The notes under the pieces: model-generated | The model's input: only the letters and a program-made list of their open reading frames with translations | Database searches by the model: none | Told to the model about the DNA's origin: nothing | Made by a program: the position numbers and the translations under genes | Sequence record: OV754623 | Direction: 5' to 3' (one strand) | DNA from: Escherichia phage UGJNEcP1 | DNA: 64,000 bases | Shown: one piece after another, positions 4,582 through 31,703 of the stretch | Layout of the letters: every line of letters starts with the position of its first letter | Position numbering within the stretch: the first letter of the stretch is position 1

Positions 4582-7500
4582 ATGGCCGACATCAAACGTA
4601 AGTTCAGAGCCGAAGACGGTCTGGACGCCGGTGGCGACAAGATTGTTAACGTAGCATTAGCCGACCGTACAGTAGGTACAGATGGCGTAAACGTTGACTT
4701 CCTGGTACAAGAAAACACCGTTCAAGTATATGATTCTACGCGTGGATATAACAAAGGATTTGTTGTTCTTTATGACAACCGTTTATATCAAGCAATAAAT
4801 GATATCGTGTCTCCTTCAGGGGCATTTAACCTTTTACAATGGCGTGCAGTTCGTACCGATGCACAATGGATAACTGTCGCTTCTGGGACTTATCAACTTT
4901 CTTCAGGTGAATCTATTTCGGTTAACACTGGTGCTGGCAATGATATGGTTTTCACATTGCCAAATGCGCCGGTTGATGGTGATACTGTTGTTTTGGCTGA
5001 TATTGGTGGAAGAACCGGGACAGTTAAAGTACAGATTAACGCGTCTGTGCAGAGTATTTTAAACTTTAGAGGTGAACAAGTTCGTACAGTTTTAATGACG
5101 CGCCCACGTTCACAACTATTGTTTGTGTTTAGTAATCGCTTGTGGCAGATGTATATCATTGATTATGGTAAAGAATCAATCACTGTTACACCTGCGACAC
5201 CATATCAAGCACAAGCAAATGATTTTATCGTTCGTCGTTTTACTAGTGCAGCACCAATCAACATTACACTTCCACGTAATGCTAACAATGGCGATATAAT
5301 CACCCTAGTCGATTTAGATAAATTAAACCCACTGTATCATACAATTGTTAAAACATTTGATGATACAACGTCTATTGGTGAAGTCGGGACTCATATTGCC
5401 GAAGGCAGAAATGACTCTGACGCGTTTTTTGTTTTTGATGCTTCAAATAGTTTATGGCGTATATGGGAAGGCGACCAGAAATCGCGTCTTCGTATTATCC
5501 GTGCGGATTCAAATATTCGTCCAAATGAAGAAGTTCTTATTTTTGGCACAAATAACGCTACATCCGGAACTATTAATCTTACGCTGCCTACAGGAATTTT
5601 GAGTGGTGACACTGTTAAAATTTCAATGAACTACATGCGTAAAGGCCAAACAGTAAAAATTAAAGCTGCCGAAGGTGATACAATTGCTTCTTCTGTTGCA
5701 TTGCTTCAGTTCCCTAAACGTTCTGAATATCCACCTGATGCTCAATGGGTCTCTGTTACTGAACTAGAATTCAATGGCACTACTTCGTATGTTCCTGTAT
5801 TAGAATTAGCATATATTGAAGATACCGATTCCGACACTCATTATTGGGTTGTGCAACAGAATGTCCCTACGGTAGAACGTGTTGATGCTGGAACTGATGC
5901 TACACGAGCTCGTTTAGGTGTTATTGCTCTTGCTACTCAAGCGCAAGCAAATGTTGATTTAGAGAATACTCCAGCTAAAGAAGTGGCTATTACTCCTGAA
6001 ACGTTGGCAAATCGTACAGCAACTGAAGCTCGACGTGGTATCGCTAAAATTGCTACAACAGCACAAGTTAACCAGAATTCCACAGCAACATTTGTGGACG
6101 ATACTATTGTTACGCCTAAAAAACTAAATGAGCGTACAGCAACTGAAACTCGTCGTGGTCTTGCTGAAATTGCTACTCAGGCTGAAACCGATGCTGGTCT
6201 TGACGACACAACGATTATTACACCTAAGAAATTGCAGGCACGTCAGGGTTCTGAAACACTATCTGGTATAGTTAAATATGTATCAACTACTTCTGCTACT
6301 CCTGCTGAAACTCGTGGGGCAGCAGGCACTAACGTTTATAATAAAACCGTAAATAATTTAACTATTTCCCCTAAAGCCCTTGACCAATATAAAGCAACTT
6401 ATGCTCAACAAGGTGCAGTAATTTTAGCTGTTGATAGTGAAGTAATTGCTGGACAATCTCAAGCAGGTTATTCTCACGCTGTAGTAACTCCTGAAACACT
6501 ACATAAGAAAACTTCTACTGATGGACGTATTGGTTTAATTGAAATTGCTACGCAAGCAGAAACTAATACTGGGACTGATTATACACGTGCAGTAACGCCT
6601 AAGACGTTAAATGATAGGAAAGCTACGGAAGGAATATCCGGCATAGCCGAACTTGCTACGCAAGTTGAATTTGATACTGGAACTGATGATACTCGTATCT
6701 CGACTCCACTGAAAATTAAAACTCATTTTGATTCTTCTGACCGTACCAGTGTTAATTCTGATTCCGGACTTATTGAAGAAGGAACCTTGTGGAACCATTA
6801 TACTCTTGATATTTCTAAAGCAAATGAAACACAACGTGGTACACTTCGCGTAGCGACCCAGGCAGAATCTAATGCAGGAACTTTAGATGATGTTCTTATT
6901 ACTCCTAAAAAGCTTTTAGGGACTAAGTCCACTGAAACGTCTGAAGGCGTAATTAAGGTTGCTACTCGGGCTGAAACTGTAACAGGAACTTCTGCTAATA
7001 CTGCTGTATCTCCTAAGAATTTAAAATGGATTGTCCAGAACGAACCAACATGGGCTGCTACTACGGCAATTCGCGGATTCGTTAAAACTTCATCCGGTTC
7101 TATTACATTTGTTGGTAATGATACAGTTGGTTCAACACAACCTTTAGAATCATATGAGAAAAATAGCTATGCAGTATCACCATATGAATTAAACCGTGTA
7201 CTTGCTAACTATTTACCATTAAAAGCAAAAGCTGCTGACGCAAATTTATTAGATGGCCTAGATTCATCTCAGTTCATTCGTAGGGACATTGCACAGACGG
7301 TTAATGGTTCACTAACCTTAACCCAACAAACGAATCTGAGTGGCCCTCTTGTATCATCTAGTACCGCTACGTTTGGTGGATCAGTTTCGGCAAATAGTAC
7401 ATTAACTATTTCTAATACTGGAACGGCAACTCGTCTGATTTTTGAAAAAGGACCTCAGACTGGAACTAACCCAGTACAGACGATGACTATCAGAGTTTGG

Positions 7501-8457
7501 GGAAATCAGTTTGGTGGTGGTTCAGATACAACACGTTCTACCGTATTTGAAGTTGGCGATGAAACGTCTAATCACTTTTATTCTCAACGTAATAAAGCTG
7601 GTAATATAACGTTTAGCATTAATGGTACTGTAATGCCAATAAATGTTAACGCTTCGGGTTCATTGAATGCGAATGGCGTAGCAACATTTGGTAGTTCAGT
7701 TACTGCTAATGGCGAATTCATCAGCAAGTCTGCAAATGCTTTCAGAGCAATAAACGGTGATTACGGATTCTTTATTCGTAATGATGCTGCTAATACCTAT
7801 TTTATGCTCACTGCATCTGGTGATCAGACTGGCGGATTTAATGGATTACGTCCTTTGGCTATTAATAATGCATCTGGTCAAGTAACGATTGGTGAAAGCT
7901 TAATCATTGCCAAAGGTGCTACTATAAATTCAGGTGGTTTAACTGTTAACTCGAGAATTCGTTCTCAGGGTTCTAAAACTGCTGATTTATACACTCGTGC
8001 TCCTACTGCTGATACAGTCGGGTTCTGGTCAGTTGACATTAACGATTCAGCCACTTATAACCAATTCCCGGGTTATTTTAAAATGGTTGAAAAAACTAAT
8101 GAAGTGTCTGGACTTCCGTACTTAGAACGTGGTGAAGAAGTTAAATCCCCTGGTACTTTGACTCAGTTTGGTAATACGCTTGATTCTCTTTACCAAGATT
8201 GGATTACTTATCCAACGACACCGGAAGCGCGTACCACTCGCTGGACTCGTACATGGCAGAAAACTAAAAATTCTTGGTCAAGTTTTGTTCAGGTATTTGA
8301 TGGTGGAAACCCTCCTCAACCTTCTGATATTGGTGCTTTACCTTCTGATAATGCAACAATCGGAAACTTGACAATAAGGGATTTCTTAAGGATTGGTAAC
8401 GTCCGCATTATTCCAGACCCTGTGAATAAATCTGTTAAATTCGAGTGGATTGAATAA
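4582..8457 (+). CDS. 34: long tail fibre proximal subunit gp34
   Basis: 1291 aa (T4 gp34 about 1289 aa); internal repeats of a TPKKL/ATQAET motif; late promoter upstream; first gene of the 34-38 operon. Confidence 0.95.
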   Translation: MADIKRKFRAEDGLDAGGDKIVNVALADRTVGTDGVNVDFLVQENTVQVYDSTRGYNKGFVVLYDNRLYQAINDIVSPSGAFNLLQWRAVRTDAQWITVASGTYQLSSGESISVNTGAGNDMVFTLPNAPVDGDTVVLADIGGRTGTVKVQINASVQSILNFRGEQVRTVLMTRPRSQLLFVFSNRLWQMYIIDYGKESITVTPATPYQAQANDFIVRRFTSAAPINITLPRNANNGDIITLVDLDKLNPLYHTIVKTFDDTTSIGEVGTHIAEGRNDSDAFFVFDASNSLWRIWEGDQKSRLRIIRADSNIRPNEEVLIFGTNNATSGTINLTLPTGILSGDTVKISMNYMRKGQTVKIKAAEGDTIASSVALLQFPKRSEYPPDAQWVSVTELEFNGTTSYVPVLELAYIEDTDSDTHYWVVQQNVPTVERVDAGTDATRARLGVIALATQAQANVDLENTPAKEVAITPETLANRTATEARRGIAKIATTAQVNQNSTATFVDDTIVTPKKLNERTATETRRGLAEIATQAETDAGLDDTTIITPKKLQARQGSETLSGIVKYVSTTSATPAETRGAAGTNVYNKTVNNLTISPKALDQYKATYAQQGAVILAVDSEVIAGQSQAGYSHAVVTPETLHKKTSTDGRIGLIEIATQAETNTGTDYTRAVTPKTLNDRKATEGISGIAELATQVEFDTGTDDTRISTPLKIKTHFDSSDRTSVNSDSGLIEEGTLWNHYTLDISKANETQRGTLRVATQAESNAGTLDDVLITPKKLLGTKSTETSEGVIKVATRAETVTGTSANTAVSPKNLKWIVQNEPTWAATTAIRGFVKTSSGSITFVGNDTVGSTQPLESYEKNSYAVSPYELNRVLANYLPLKAKAADANLLDGLDSSQFIRRDIAQTVNGSLTLTQQTNLSGPLVSSSTATFGGSVSANSTLTISNTGTATRLIFEKGPQTGTNPVQTMTIRVWGNQFGGGSDTTRSTVFEVGDETSNHFYSQRNKAGNITFSINGTVMPINVNASGSLNANGVATFGSSVTANGEFISKSANAFRAINGDYGFFIRNDAANTYFMLTASGDQTGGFNGLRPLAINNASGQVTIGESLIIAKGATINSGGLTVNSRIRSQGSKTADLYTRAPTADTVGFWSVDINDSATYNQFPGYFKMVEKTNEVSGLPYLERGEEVKSPGTLTQFGNTLDSLYQDWITYPTTPEARTTRWTRTWQKTKNSWSSFVQVFDGGNPPQPSDIGALPSDNATIGNLTIRDFLRIGNVRIIPDPVNKSVKFEWIE

Positions 8458-28730: not shown

Positions 28731-28910
28731 TTAACCCTTCTTAAGTAAGTCGTAAAAACCACCGTTCACATGTTTAGGAGCAGAAACCCGACGAGTAGAC
28801 AGACGATGACATTCAGGGCAAACATCGTTTTCTCGTTCAGAAATCCTTTTAATTTTTTCATATTCATGACCACAATCTTCAGATTGACATTTATAGTCGT
28901 ATAACGGCAT
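28731..28910 (-). CDS. FmdB-family zinc-ribbon protein
   Basis: 59-aa [24 protein letters not shown]...CPECH matching the FmdB zinc-ribbon pattern; TAATG overlap with upstream ORF; below track cutoff. Confidence 0.5.
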   Translation of the reverse strand: MPLYDYKCQSEDCGHEYEKIKRISERENDVCPECHRLSTRRVSAPKHVNGGFYDLLKKG

Positions 28911-29341
28911 TATTGTTCCTTAAAATGTGCTTTCAACATTTGATACAAAGACCATGCCTGGTCGTTATTTTCGATAGTAATCGTCATCACAGGAAATTCA
29001 GACAATTCGTCAAGTTCATCAGAATCTTGCTCTTCAGACGCTTGATATGGATTTCCAACTTCGTCAAAGAACTCTGCTTCATTCGTGGAGAGCCAGATAA
29101 AGTTTTCATCAAGGATATCACCGCCTGTTGCGTATCCAACCGTGCCAGTAGATGTTAAAATTTTAGTAGGACGTCCGAGATGGTCAACATCTAATACTTT
29201 AAATGGTTCCATGCCAAGACGTCGTGCATAAATCCCATTATCAGTGTGGTCTTTAATAAACTCTTCTTGGGCACGTTTATCTATAAATTGATACCATGAG
29301 TTAACGCGGAATTTATTAGCCATTAGTAAGTTTCCTTCCAA
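28910..29341 (-). CDS. hypothetical acidic protein
   Basis: 143-aa ORF with acidic C-terminal stretch. Confidence 0.45.
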
Positions 29342-29595
29342 TAAGTTGTACCATTTTCAGTGATTTCACGGAAGATACCATAGATAGGCATTTCATCGCC
29401 GAGTTTTTCGTAAACGTAAACCACTTCGGTGTAGCATAAAAATTCAGTCCAGTTTTTCTGTACAACAACTAAATCAGGATTAAACAGAACATCTTCAAAC
29501 TCATCGATGTTTGAATCGGTAGTTACGTTTTTAATGATTTGACGTTTCATAATATTCTCCTCTTGTTTTGATAGGTCTATAGTATCATAGACCAT
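29323..29595 (-). CDS. hypothetical small protein
   Basis: 90-aa ORF, possibly starting at internal MKRQ. Confidence 0.4.
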
Positions 29596-29607: not shown

Positions 29608-30132
29608 TCATTTTAGCAAAATAAAATCAACTTGTTCTGCCAATGAACGTCTGAACATTAATTGACAACTTCCAAGGATGAAATCAGGTGCTTCATAGAC
29701 CGCGATGTAGTATCCTTTAGCTTTCAAGAGTTCAACATCCACCTGGTCATCAAACCATGCATAGACCGCGTCAACACTTTCAAATCCAAAATAGAACTCT
29801 TGAGCCCAATCTTCGCTCAATTCAAATGTGTGCTCAATTCTATGGTATCTTAAGGTATTTTGTTCAAGGAGTTTGTCTTCATTTACTGTAGGACGATTAG
29901 GGACATTATAGTTGTCGCCATGATGGTAGAAGTTACCTGAGAGTATTCCATGCTTATCAAGGAACTCCCATGTTTCTTCAGAGTTGTCGGTGCCCGACCA
30001 ACCGTATGGCGAACGAGGTTCTTTATTCCAAGAGGTTTCCCAAATTCTGACGGCTTTACCGTCTTCAATAGCAATTCCTGGTAATGATTCACGTTGAGTA
30101 CAAAAACTACGTTCTACTCGGTAAACTAACAT
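29608..30132 (-). CDS. hypothetical protein
   Basis: 174-aa ORF with an early promoter upstream. Confidence 0.5.
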   Translation of the reverse strand: MLVYRVERSFCTQRESLPGIAIEDGKAVRIWETSWNKEPRSPYGWSGTDNSEETWEFLDKHGILSGNFYHHGDNYNVPNRPTVNEDKLLEQNTLRYHRIEHTFELSEDWAQEFYFGFESVDAVYAWFDDQVDVELLKAKGYYIAVYEAPDFILGSCQLMFRRSLAEQVDFILLK

Positions 30133-30158
30133 ATTATTCTCCTCTGGTTGATATGGTT

Positions 30159-30187
30159 ATAATATCAAAACCAGAGGAGAAGTAAAC
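30159..30187 (-). promoter_or_regulatory. early promoter flanked by an inverted repeat
   Basis: plus gtaaac 30182-30187 and ataata 30159-30164; arms cctctggtt/aaccagagg flank the -10 region. Confidence 0.45.
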
Positions 30188-30191
30188 AACT

Positions 30192-30611
30192 TTATGCAAA
30201 AGATGCTGGACAATATTTTTTGATTTGGAACTCAGGAACTACCATGAACTGACCAGCAAAAACAATGTTATAAAGCTTGACGCCATCTTCAACCCATTGG
30301 TCACTGATGAACCCAGCGACTTGATTCGTTGTCCACGGTGTTCCGTCTGTCGCAGAGGCAATGGTGAACTTGTGGTCTTTTACAACTAAAACCGATCTGC
30401 ACAGTTTCCATTTGAACGCTTTTTCTTCCGGTTCAATGAATTGGCTTTTAACGTAACCAATGTTACCATCGGCGTCACGAACTTTAATTTCGTTACGTCC
30501 AAAAACAGGATCACTCACATAAAGAACTTCAACCAACTTCCCGGCAACTTTAGAGCGAGAAGCATCCGATACGTGTACATAATCACCAATAGAGAGATTT
30601 GCAATATTCAT
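30192..30611 (-). CDS. paralog A of a three-member tandem family (shared C-terminal DQW.EDG domain)
   Basis: 139 aa; C-terminus GFISDQWVEDGVKLYNIVFAGQFMVVPE shared with the two upstream ORFs. Confidence 0.6.
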   Translation of the reverse strand: MNIANLSIGDYVHVSDASRSKVAGKLVEVLYVSDPVFGRNEIKVRDADGNIGYVKSQFIEPEEKAFKWKLCRSVLVVKDHKFTIASATDGTPWTTNQVAGFISDQWVEDGVKLYNIVFAGQFMVVPEFQIKKYCPASFA

Positions 30612-30620
30612 AATAATTCC

Positions 30621-31085
30621 TTAAGCTTTACGAGGAGACACATAGCGAGTGATTTCAGATTCTTCAACAACTCGGAAGTCACCTAAGAATACAATATTGT
30701 ATAGCTTTTTACCATCTTCAACCCATTGGTCGCTGATGAAGCCGCACATAGTATCAGTTTTGCTTGGATAACCGTATTCGTCGATGTAATCAAATTCTTT
30801 ATCGGTTATAAATTCAACGCCTTTGCAAAGGGCCCATTTGAACTGTGTAGTAGGCTCAACGATATCGCTTGAAGCAAATTGGACTCGTATATGTTTTTCC
30901 AGGAATTTAGGACTTACGTAAGCATACTGGGCATCTTGTCCGCCAAAACTCGGGATGATTCGAACTTTAACTTCTTTAACACGTCCCATGCCGTTAGTAC
31001 GAAGCCCTGCTACTTCAACCAGACGACCTGCAGCTTTAGAACGAGAAGCAGGAGATACACGAAGGATTTCACCAATAGTAATCAT
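30621..31085 (-). CDS. paralog B of the tandem family
   Basis: ORF 30621..31148; likely start at MITIGEIL; N-terminus parallels paralog A and C-terminus GFISDQWVEDGKKLYNIVFLGDFRVV. Confidence 0.6.
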   Translation of the reverse strand: MITIGEILRVSPASRSKAAGRLVEVAGLRTNGMGRVKEVKVRIIPSFGGQDAQYAYVSPKFLEKHIRVQFASSDIVEPTTQFKWALCKGVEFITDKEFDYIDEYGYPSKTDTMCGFISDQWVEDGKKLYNIVFLGDFRVVEESEITRYVSPRKA

Positions 31086-31115
31086 AATTTCTCTCTCTTT
31101 GTTTAAATTGAATTC

Positions 31116-31144
31116 ACTATACTCCATCCATCCTTGGATGTACA
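31116..31144 (-). promoter_or_regulatory. early-type promoter in front of paralog B
   Basis: minus strand TGTACA-TCCAAGGATGGATGGAG-TATAGT; spacer nearly identical to the promoter in front of paralog C. Confidence 0.4.
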
Positions 31145-31147
31145 ACA

Positions 31148-31642
31148 TTAATTAAGGATATTAACCACAGCACTACGTGGAACAACACTAAAATCACCAG
31201 CATGAACAACGTTAATAAGTTCAACACCATCTTCAATCCACTGGTCAGTTACCCATCCACTCACTGGACCTGCGAACGGACGTCGAATTGAAACGGCTTT
31301 ACACAACAAATCAGTAGGCTCAATAGGCTTAATCAGAGTACCGTACATACAAGCGATGTCCATATCAAAGTGGAGACCATCTTTAACAGGTGCTTCTTCA
31401 ATCAACAGTTCAAAGTCTGTGCTTGGAAGGGCGGTAGTAGAAATTGTACCGTATGAATTTTTAATTTCTAAGAATAACCAAGGGCCTTCAGCTTGTTTGA
31501 TGAAGTTAACAATAGTGAAACTATTACCTTGAGTGGCACCTAAAATTTCACAAAACTTTTCATAAGCTCGCACTGAAGCACCGTACCAATTGATTTGTTT
31601 TTCGTCTTTCAGGATGTAAGTAGCCGTAGTATTGATATTCAT
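31148..31642 (-). CDS. paralog C of the tandem family
   Basis: 164 aa; distinct N-terminus but shared C-terminal GWVTDQWIEDGVELINVVHAGDFSVVPR. Confidence 0.6.
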   Translation of the reverse strand: MNINTTATYILKDEKQINWYGASVRAYEKFCEILGATQGNSFTIVNFIKQAEGPWLFLEIKNSYGTISTTALPSTDFELLIEEAPVKDGLHFDMDIACMYGTLIKPIEPTDLLCKAVSIRRPFAGPVSGWVTDQWIEDGVELINVVHAGDFSVVPRSAVVNILN

Positions 31643-31673: not shown

Positions 31674-31703
31674 ATTATACTCCAACCATCCTTGGTTGTA
31701 AAC
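31674..31703 (-). promoter_or_regulatory. early promoter in front of paralog C
   Basis: minus strand GTTTAC-AACCAAGGATGGTTGGAG-TATAAT. Confidence 0.5.

Follow-up and report, generated by a model that had tools for sequence, protein, structure and literature searches.

A motB.1, motB and second motB gene cluster in an RB69-like Escherichia phage and its shared C-terminal module

The closest described relatives of the genes analyzed here are motB and motB.1 of bacteriophage T4. [quoted passage not shown] It derepresses H-NS-silenced genes (PMC6070864, PMC7827196) and alters H-NS footprints, with 75 host genes up, of which the H-NS regulon accounts for about one third (PMC7827196), and knockdown of motB barely changes the T4 transcriptome (PMC6070864, PMC12152347). 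A conserved C-terminal domain is common to MotB and MotB.1, whose N-terminal domains differ (Patterson-West et al. 2021, PMC7827196). According to the same authors one of the two genes probably arose by duplication of the other, the homologs can be sorted into categories by distinct N-termini, and RB69 possesses two motB genes, one motB.1 and one 29-aa peptide (PMC7827196). HHpred placed the C-terminal domain of T4 MotB in the cold-shock/eIF5A OB family and it was stated that either domain could bind DNA (PMC7827196). A KOW-motif assignment has been published for the N-terminus of MotB. For the N-terminus of MotB.1 an LSm-like barrel with kinship to GoF and Frd.2 has been described (Kim et al. 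2025, PMC12152347), and neither deletion nor amber mutation of T4 motB.1 changed burst size, latent period or plating efficiency (PMC12152347).

Here, we describe the corresponding locus in Escherichia phage UGJNEcP1 (sequence record OV754623), using a stretch of 64,000 nucleotides (the window) that is 100% identical to Escherichia phage UGJNEcP2, an RB69-like T-even phage of the genus Mosigvirus. A sequence-only reading had drawn attention to three adjacent minus-strand ORFs (A, B and C, Table 1) with similar C-terminal segments, and both the ORFs and the peptides quoted from them are present exactly as written there. With high confidence, sequence comparison identifies this trio as the motB.1, motB and second-motB cluster of RB69-like T-even phages. 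The family is already known and the arrangement already published; the sequence-only reading did not recognize it. At a probability of roughly 85% we consider the locus to be an RB69-like cluster of motB.1, motB and a motB paralog that encodes early modular beta-barrel proteins, with B MotB-like and with transcription from early promoters.

Table 1. Coordinates of the genes and of the promoter-like sites in the window.
Feature	Position	Strand	Description
ORF C	31148-31642	minus	164 aa; intact MotB.1 ortholog
ORF B	30621-31085, longest ORF to 31148	minus	154 aa (175 aa as annotated); T4 MotB ortholog
ORF A	30192-30611	minus	139 aa; MotB paralog equivalent to RB69p010
D (motB.2 ortholog)	29608-30132		next gene downstream of A
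Promoter-like site upstream of C	31674-31702	minus	sigma-70-type (T4 early-type); TTTACA-17-TATAAT, 11/12 consensus, spacer CCAAGGATGGTTGGAG
Promoter-like site upstream of B	31116-31144	minus	sigma-70-type; TGTACA-17-TATAGT, 9/12 consensus, paralogous spacer CCAAGGATGGATGGAG
Downstream cluster boundary, promoter-like site in hairpin	30137-30186	minus	TTTACT-16-TATTAT

Members of the cluster and their genomic setting

All three proteins exceed the gathering threshold of the Pfam family PF17613 (MotB), which is 25 bits for the whole-protein score, with 81.7 bits for A (E 7e-23), 126.8 bits for B (E 9e-37) and 36.8 bits for C (E 5e-9). The match of C is confined to profile positions 82-153, i.e. 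to the C-terminal module. Among the PHROG families A and B are placed in phrog_1671 (MotB-like; E 8e-52 and 1e-61) and C over its full length in phrog_2333 (E 6e-81). BLASTP aligns A with B at 42% identity over 148 aa (E 4e-31), A with C at 62% over 29 aa (E 1e-10) and B with C at 44% over 36 aa (E 3e-9). Pairwise alignment and profile scores thus bear out the tandem paralogy that had been proposed, and together with the predicted beta domain described below they demonstrate that the shared C-terminal segment is real and its similarity far above chance; the N-terminal block SRSKAAG.LVEV common to A and B and the different N-terminus of C were confirmed as well. At the nucleotide level the module cores constitute a three-copy direct-repeat family (71% identity between A and B and 62% between A and C over 94 nt) and for the N-terminal blocks of A and B the identity is 72% in a stretch of 67 nt. 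A tblastn search of the 64-kb window detected the module exactly three times, with no fourth copy of it, no further copy of either domain and no counterpart of the RB69-like 29-aa peptide. The similarity is not of the low-complexity kind, the module being a confidently folded beta domain in the models, and the family is not absent from relatives, as 757-778 phage records match.

The gene order dexA-motB.1(C)-motB(B)-motB'(A)-motB.2(D)-cef is common to the window and RB69, in contrast with dexA-motB.2-motB.1-motB-cef in T4. Since motB.2 is located downstream of the cluster, the motB.1 gene of Mosigviruses directly follows dexA, which differs from T4. Orthologs of T4 MotB are characterized by their location between dexA and cef in the early region, and the cluster lies there. 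In the RB69 cluster (motB.1, ORF012, motB and ORF010; NC_004928) the gene order and the three paralogs are the same, with C at the motB.1 position, and this trio was also present in every Mosigvirus locus examined. Some annotations label D as “MotB”; it was rejected as a fourth family member, with no Pfam match, placement in phrog_1106 and no similarity to the module. D is 33% identical to T4 MotB.2 and is the ortholog of this protein from an unrelated family.

Full-length similarity together with an N-terminus of the type I.IGE..RVS..SRSKAAG.LVEV and a module of the type FKW...DQWVEDG.KLYN, by which we define MotB orthologs, is found in both B and A. B aligns with T4 MotB over its full length at 45.5% identity (156 aa, E 1e-40) and resembles it in having the same N- and C-terminal domains, the same dexA-cef neighbourhood and an early-type promoter-like site ahead of the gene. 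It differs from T4 MotB in the length and sequence of its linker and in charge, B having an acidic module and T4 MotB a near-neutral one. In the ORF annotated with 175 aa (start at 31148) the first 63 nt contain the promoter-like site of B itself, and because indels of 2 and 5 nt put this 5' extension out of frame in related phages it appears to be non-coding. The most likely start codon is therefore ATG at 31085, giving a protein of 154 aa that begins with MITIGE (MIINIGE in T4 MotB).

A, the more divergent of the two MotB-type proteins, is 38.5% identical to T4 MotB over 161 aa. Compared with T4 MotB it represents a second member of the same architecture with an acidic N-terminus and without linker, and it has no counterpart in T4. 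B and A are separated by 9 nt in which no promoter-like site was found. A does have a Shine-Dalgarno sequence to itself, and as it lacks a separate promoter-like site the two genes probably share one transcript. About 207 phage records contain copies of the A type with at least 80% identity. A further 571 records match at less than 60% identity to A, and those of them that were sampled match MotB itself.

C shows 38% identity to the reference T4 MotB.1, 46% to the intact 143-aa T4 form P0110 over 99% of the length, and 46-50% to intact MotB.1 proteins of Tequatroviruses over 98-99% of the length. It combines a MotB.1-type N-terminal domain with the PTDLLC...GWVTDQWIEDGVEL module. The likeness to T4 MotB.1 (PHROG 2333; “Category 2” of Patterson-West et al. 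2021; LSm-like fold family of Kim et al. 2025) extends to the N-terminal type, which has been published as LSm-like in MotB.1 (PMC12152347), to the longer module signature PTDLLCKAV...GWVTDQWIEDGVEL(I/L)NVVHAG and to the location directly upstream of motB. On the other hand the linker of C is 21 aa longer (HFDMDIACMYGTLIKPIE), an extension that is absent in T4 and present in TOPO13-type Tequatroviruses.

Near-identical promoter spacers had been reported ahead of B and C, and this observation holds: the 20-nt sequence CCAAGGATGGNTGGAGTATA occurs only at 31118-31137 and 31676-31695, that is twice against 0.01 occurrences expected by chance, and the upstream regions of B and C are 75% identical over 48 nt. 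The promoter-like site of C is kept in all Mosigvirus loci examined and is annotated as promoter in NBG1, and that of B is conserved across Mosigviruses; the overall count of promoter-like sites across the region equals the shuffle expectation. At the downstream boundary of the cluster a conserved predicted hairpin (dG -24.5 kcal/mol, z -5.0, with 0 of 200 shuffles folding as well) would sequester the Shine-Dalgarno sequence of D, which it holds in its 3' arm, and has the -10 element of the promoter-like site of D in its loop. A hairpin with a different stem sequence is located at the same place in T4-type phages.

Domain architecture and modelled fold of the shared module

The module common to A, B and C comprises about 55-75 aa with the motif DQW(V/I)EDG. 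In B it occupies residues 81-154 and is preceded by a basic N-terminal barrel (aa 1-63) and a variable disordered linker (66-79). C consists of an N-terminal domain with beta strands and helix (aa 1-83), a disordered linker with the motif D.D.A.MY...KP (85-107) and the module (109-164; nt 31151-31318). A has an acidic N-terminus of the MotB type (net -2), nearly no linker and the module at residues 63-139. The AF2 models, which were calculated from shallow family alignments of 25 and 12 sequences, have a pLDDT of 82 for B and 77 for C, and the block means for the shared segment are about 88-95 in B and 83-87 in C. The model of B shows a beta domain at residues 1-63 and a five-stranded C-terminal beta domain at residues 81-154, and the model of C a five-stranded module at residues 116-163. 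The sole helical element of the module is a turn of 3 residues between strands 4 and 5. In an OB fold the helix lies between strands 3 and 4, and a helical turn between strands 4 and 5 is the SH3-like arrangement.

The module hence models as an SH3/Tudor-like barrel and not as an OB fold; it does not display the combination of a five-stranded Greek-key barrel, a helix between strands 3 and 4 and CSD or eIF5A-C similarity that is typical of OB-fold or cold-shock domains. Its resemblance to small SH3-like beta-barrels (Tudor, chromo, PWWP and KOW domains of the “royal family” type; Sm/LSm) is restricted to the fold level, with 6-22% identity among the matches listed and no Pfam match. A Pfam scan of the isolated domains at E up to 10 returned PF17613 and noise (PT-HINT, Island, HK620_9_C) and no KOW, Tudor, LSm or OB domain. 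Because a sequence search of B against all PDB chains gave no match at E up to 1, there is no solved structure of the family. Among predicted viral structures significant matches were essentially confined to MotB and MotB.1 of T-even-like phages, and there was a weak match to GoF.

Domain charges vary considerably. The N-terminal domain of B carries +5 (pI 10.3) and its module -4 (pI 4.7), giving +1 overall, and the respective values are +5, +1 and +6 for T4 MotB. In A the module carries +2 and the net charge is 0, and in C the values are -4 for the N-terminal domain, -2 for the module (pI 4.9) and -8 overall (pI 4.7); T4 MotB.1 is acidic as well (overall pI 4.6).

If the shared module itself is the DNA-binding domain, as the published OB-fold-like assignment and the statement that either domain could bind DNA would allow (PMC7827196), all three proteins would be non-specific nucleoid-associated-like proteins that act in a redundant or additive manner. 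It would agree with such a role that conservation within the family is highest in the module, with 31 of 39 invariant columns of the MotB.1-type alignment at residues 109-158. Nevertheless, the acidic module of B and C, the strongly acidic overall character of C and T4 MotB.1, the acidic signature motif DQW.EDG and the lack of any Pfam OB or CSD match at E up to 10 all speak against it, so that we regard this explanation as rather unlikely. Since the module is acidic and SH3/Tudor-like in the models, the likely DNA-binding determinant of MotB shifts to the basic N-terminus. The domain charges suggest that this N-terminus is the main determinant of non-specific DNA binding by MotB and that the shared module does something common to all paralogs, e.g. 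docking or self-association, although the argument from charge is not uniform as the T4 MotB module is slightly basic. Our confidence in such a division of labour between the domains is moderate to low. In a more elaborate and more speculative version the module would be an acidic barrel of the Tudor/SH3 kind that serves docking or self-association and recruits varied N-terminal nucleic-acid-binding barrels (basic and KOW-like in MotB, LSm-like in MotB.1, a third type, and stacks of two or three) to one target, e.g. H-NS/StpA-DNA filaments or each other, and A, B and C would form a combinatorial and possibly hetero-oligomeric nucleoid-remodelling set; we consider this still less likely than DNA binding by the module.

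In the preferred reading of an early modular beta-barrel family, each protein would consist of an N-terminal barrel, a flexible linker and the shared C-terminal SH3/Tudor-like barrel, C would be transcribed from its own sigma-70 early promoter, and B and A from the promoter ahead of B. By homology with T4 MotB, B would be made early and in abundance, bind DNA non-specifically, coat host and phage DNA together with H-NS/StpA and shift the H-NS binding pattern, and it may derepress some silenced genes, leading to a modest rise in burst size. The shared barrel could be a platform common to the three proteins, used for docking or self-association or for weak binding of nucleic acid. The binding target of each paralog would depend on the exchangeable N-terminal domain, with the basic N-terminus of MotB giving most of the non-specific DNA affinity, and A and C may have undergone sub- or neo-functionalization through their N-terminal domains on the common module. 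The host-interaction role that the sequence-only reading had envisaged is plausible by analogy with the DNA binding of T4 MotB, its copurification with H-NS and StpA and its derepressing activity (PMC6070864, PMC7827196).

Age of the paralogs, selection and module exchange

With Kanagawavirus-type proteins as root, a neighbour-joining tree places the A clade outside the MotB proper of Tequatro-, Mosig-, Dhaka- and Gaprivervirus-type phages, and the duplication that separated A from B therefore appears to be old, with a long-branch artefact possible for the A clade. Selection was analyzed by pairwise Nei-Gojobori (NG86) dN/dS on 7-9 orthologs for whole genes and per domain. The ratios are 0.13 for A (dS 0.44, 9 phages), 0.20 for B (dS 0.34) and 0.12 for C (dS 0.17), to be compared with 0.04 for dexA (dS 0.08), 0.045 for cef (dS 0.15), 0.08 for motB.2 (dS 0.11) and 0.14 for goF (dS 0.17). 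According to these values A, B and C are under purifying selection, and positive selection is ruled out at the level of pairwise NG86 ratios for whole genes and domains.

The sequence-only reading had seen in the trio a recent duplication of diversifying genes, in its strong form a tandem duplication under positive selection in the style of an anti-defence arms race. The tandem layout with shared promoter spacers, a divergence among Mosigviruses that exceeds that of the neighbouring genes (dS of A and B against dexA), the variation of N-terminal modules between phages and the linker of B with its indels and the highest ratio (0.40) would fit such a history. However, neither “recent” nor “diversifying” can be maintained: A and B are just 42% identical as proteins and 71-72% at the nucleotide level in their best-conserved blocks (62-72% for the conserved cores of the trio), in the tree A lies outside MotB proper for every genus sampled, RB69 and every Mosigvirus locus examined have this same trio, and the ratios among orthologs (0.12-0.20, with no pair above 0.27) are those of purifying selection. 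High dS combined with low dN/dS in A and B fits recombination that exchanges old alleles, and points to it; an example is the B+A pair of ESh18, a phage annotated as Tequatrovirus that has this pair in the Mosigvirus type at about 90% identity (89.9% for its A copy). We therefore consider a recent diversifying origin very improbable. An equally low probability is assigned to A being a redundant and decaying motB copy without function of its own. It is true that A is shorter than B, has neither linker nor a promoter-like site of its own, has lost the basic charge of the N-terminus and that T4 manages without it, but its ORF is intact with a constant length of 420 nt in 9 of 9 phages, evolves at low dN/dS in spite of its high dS, has its own Shine-Dalgarno sequence and is retained in the numerous phage records mentioned above. 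Least probable of all is concerted evolution, in which the tandem copies would keep their C-termini alike by ongoing gene conversion in place of old ancestry and constraint. A short block with nearly identical nucleotides, TCTTCAACCCATTGGTC(A/G), is common to A and B, but there are no long identical tracts, on which ground gene conversion between the paralogs was rejected, and the 94-nt cores have diverged. Moreover the module of C reaches up to 86% protein identity with MotB.1-type modules of Tequatroviruses as compared with 60% with the module of A, and the module subtypes have therefore been kept distinct across genera.

The domain shuffling that had been proposed is borne out, since A and B have the N-terminus of the MotB type and C that of the MotB.1 type on the same module, and other phages contain further combinations. 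From the sequences compared, swapping of modules between phages is real and richer than first noticed. In many Tequatroviruses (e.g. APTC-EC-2A, 181 aa) a third N-terminal type is followed by a module with up to 86% identity to that of C. Two or three stacked N-terminal modules parted by the linker motif D.DVA.MY...KP occur in P0127 and P0203, and in Kanagawavirus IME523 and in P0157 an N-terminus of the MotB type is joined to a module of the MotB.1 type. The copy number of the module is one in IME523, two in T4, APTC-EC-2A and TOPO13, and three in Mosigviruses.

Reference records and significance for the family

The T4 reference sequence (NC_000866/AF158101) contains an extra G inside the DQW-EDG codons of motB.1, which leads to a 119-aa “13.8-kDa” protein, and the remainder of the module can be read without interruption in the +1 frame. 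In contrast with this protein, which is cut by a 1-nt difference, C is intact. Among the matches listed, 11 other T4 records as well as RB55 and RB59 align over 260 nt at 99.6% as compared with 261 nt at 100% for the reference itself. Record MT984581 was checked directly; it is without the extra G and annotates a 143-aa MotB.1 that is identical to P0110 and found on 256 contigs. Neither of the MotB papers mentions the extra G, and PMC12152347 cites 13.8 kDa and NC_000866.4 and is without the words “frameshift” or “truncat”. In RB69 the 29-aa peptide (RB69p012) is the tail of motB.1, cut off by two 1-nt insertions relative to the window; the reference gene is split into ORFs of 132 and 29 aa where the window has one intact ORF of 164 aa. 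Judged from these comparisons the 119-aa T4 reference MotB.1 and the 29-aa peptide of RB69 are 1-nt indel artefacts or variants.

That the modular MotB/MotB.1 family can be recovered by reading raw sequence is evident from the present case, in which the observation was correct and already published. For workers on these proteins the correction is that intact MotB.1 comprises 143-164 aa with a complete C-terminal module. Functional work on MotB.1 that followed the NC_000866.4 annotation would, if done with the 119-aa ORF, have dealt with a protein missing half the module. As to the second copy, A is to be seen as a conserved MotB paralog of long standing in which the N-terminal domain is no longer basic. 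Its age and the purifying selection on it make a separate function probable for this additional motB copy of RB69-like phages.

Reading frames of motB.1 and of MotB

The 29-aa peptide RB69p012 of phage RB69, classified as 'Category 3', is the C-terminal tail of motB.1. Compared with the window, RB69 motB.1 carries two 1-nt insertions of T, which break an otherwise intact gene of 164 aa into ORFs of 132 and 29 aa. In the classical reference record of T4, NC_000866.4, one surplus G occurs within the codons of the DQW-EDG motif of motB.1 and cuts MotB.1 to 119 aa. Among the matches listed, those of 11 other T4 records and of RB55 and RB59 fall one nucleotide short, spanning 260 nt with 99.6% identity. 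Direct checking of MT984581 revealed that it is without the extra G and codes for an intact MotB.1 of 143 aa, identical to the family protein P0110 that is found on 256 contigs. Published work on MotB.1 cites a 13.8-kDa form and NC_000866.4 (PMC12152347).

In B, the MotB ortholog, database annotation and many gene callers place the start at ATG 31148, giving a protein of 175 aa that overlaps the stop of C, the MotB.1 ortholog. This 5' extension contains B's own promoter, and its reading frame is not preserved in related phages. The same spurious N-terminal extension is probably present in many database entries of 165–197 aa.

Coordinates of the described features (L, locus of a related phage)
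Feature	Source	Position	Strand	Remarks
motB.1/RB69p012 region	RB69, NC_004928	L004 3001-3497		
motB.1 with extra G	T4, NC_000866.4	L003 1643-2151 (record 7142-7650)		
Intact motB.1	T4, MT984581	L014 606-1037		
Hybrid protein, Kanagawavirus type	IME523	L007 2902-3357		
motB and motB-paralog pair	Shigella phage ESh18, ON528728	L012 2073-3020		
goF ortholog	window	28910-29323	minus	downstream of A-B-C cluster
cef ortholog	window	29323-29550	minus	downstream of A-B-C cluster
Strong hairpin	window	30137-30186	minus	dG -24.5 kcal/mol, z -5.0
5' extension of B	window	31086-31148	minus	

The hairpin ahead of D

The 3' arm of the hairpin includes the Shine-Dalgarno sequence of D (motB.2 ortholog) and its loop a promoter-like -10 element. 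The ribosome-binding site of D would be hidden in read-through transcripts and exposed in promoter-proximal ones. T4-type phages possess a hairpin at the equivalent place but with a different stem sequence.

Barrel architecture and exchange between genera

The family members P0127, P0203, P0126 and similar proteins of about 250 aa show two to three N-terminal barrels ahead of one C-terminal module, with a recurring D.DVA.MY...KP linker motif between the stacked barrels, and in Kanagawavirus-type proteins a MotB-type N-terminus is fused to a MotB.1-type module. An LSm-like barrel was reported as common to MotB.1 and the N-terminus of GoF (PMC12152347) and C gives a weak Foldseek match with GoF (E 0.027); thus small-barrel early proteins are abundant across the whole dexA-to-gene-39 stretch.

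ESh18, annotated as Tequatrovirus, has T4-type dexA.1/dexA.2, motB.2 and motB.1 together with a Mosigvirus-type pair of motB and its paralog, the copy of A (motB paralog) being 89.9% identical; RB9 (KM606998) likewise has an A copy of high identity (89.2%). The composition of ESh18 indicates that the cassette of motB and its paralog has been exchanged between genera by recombination.
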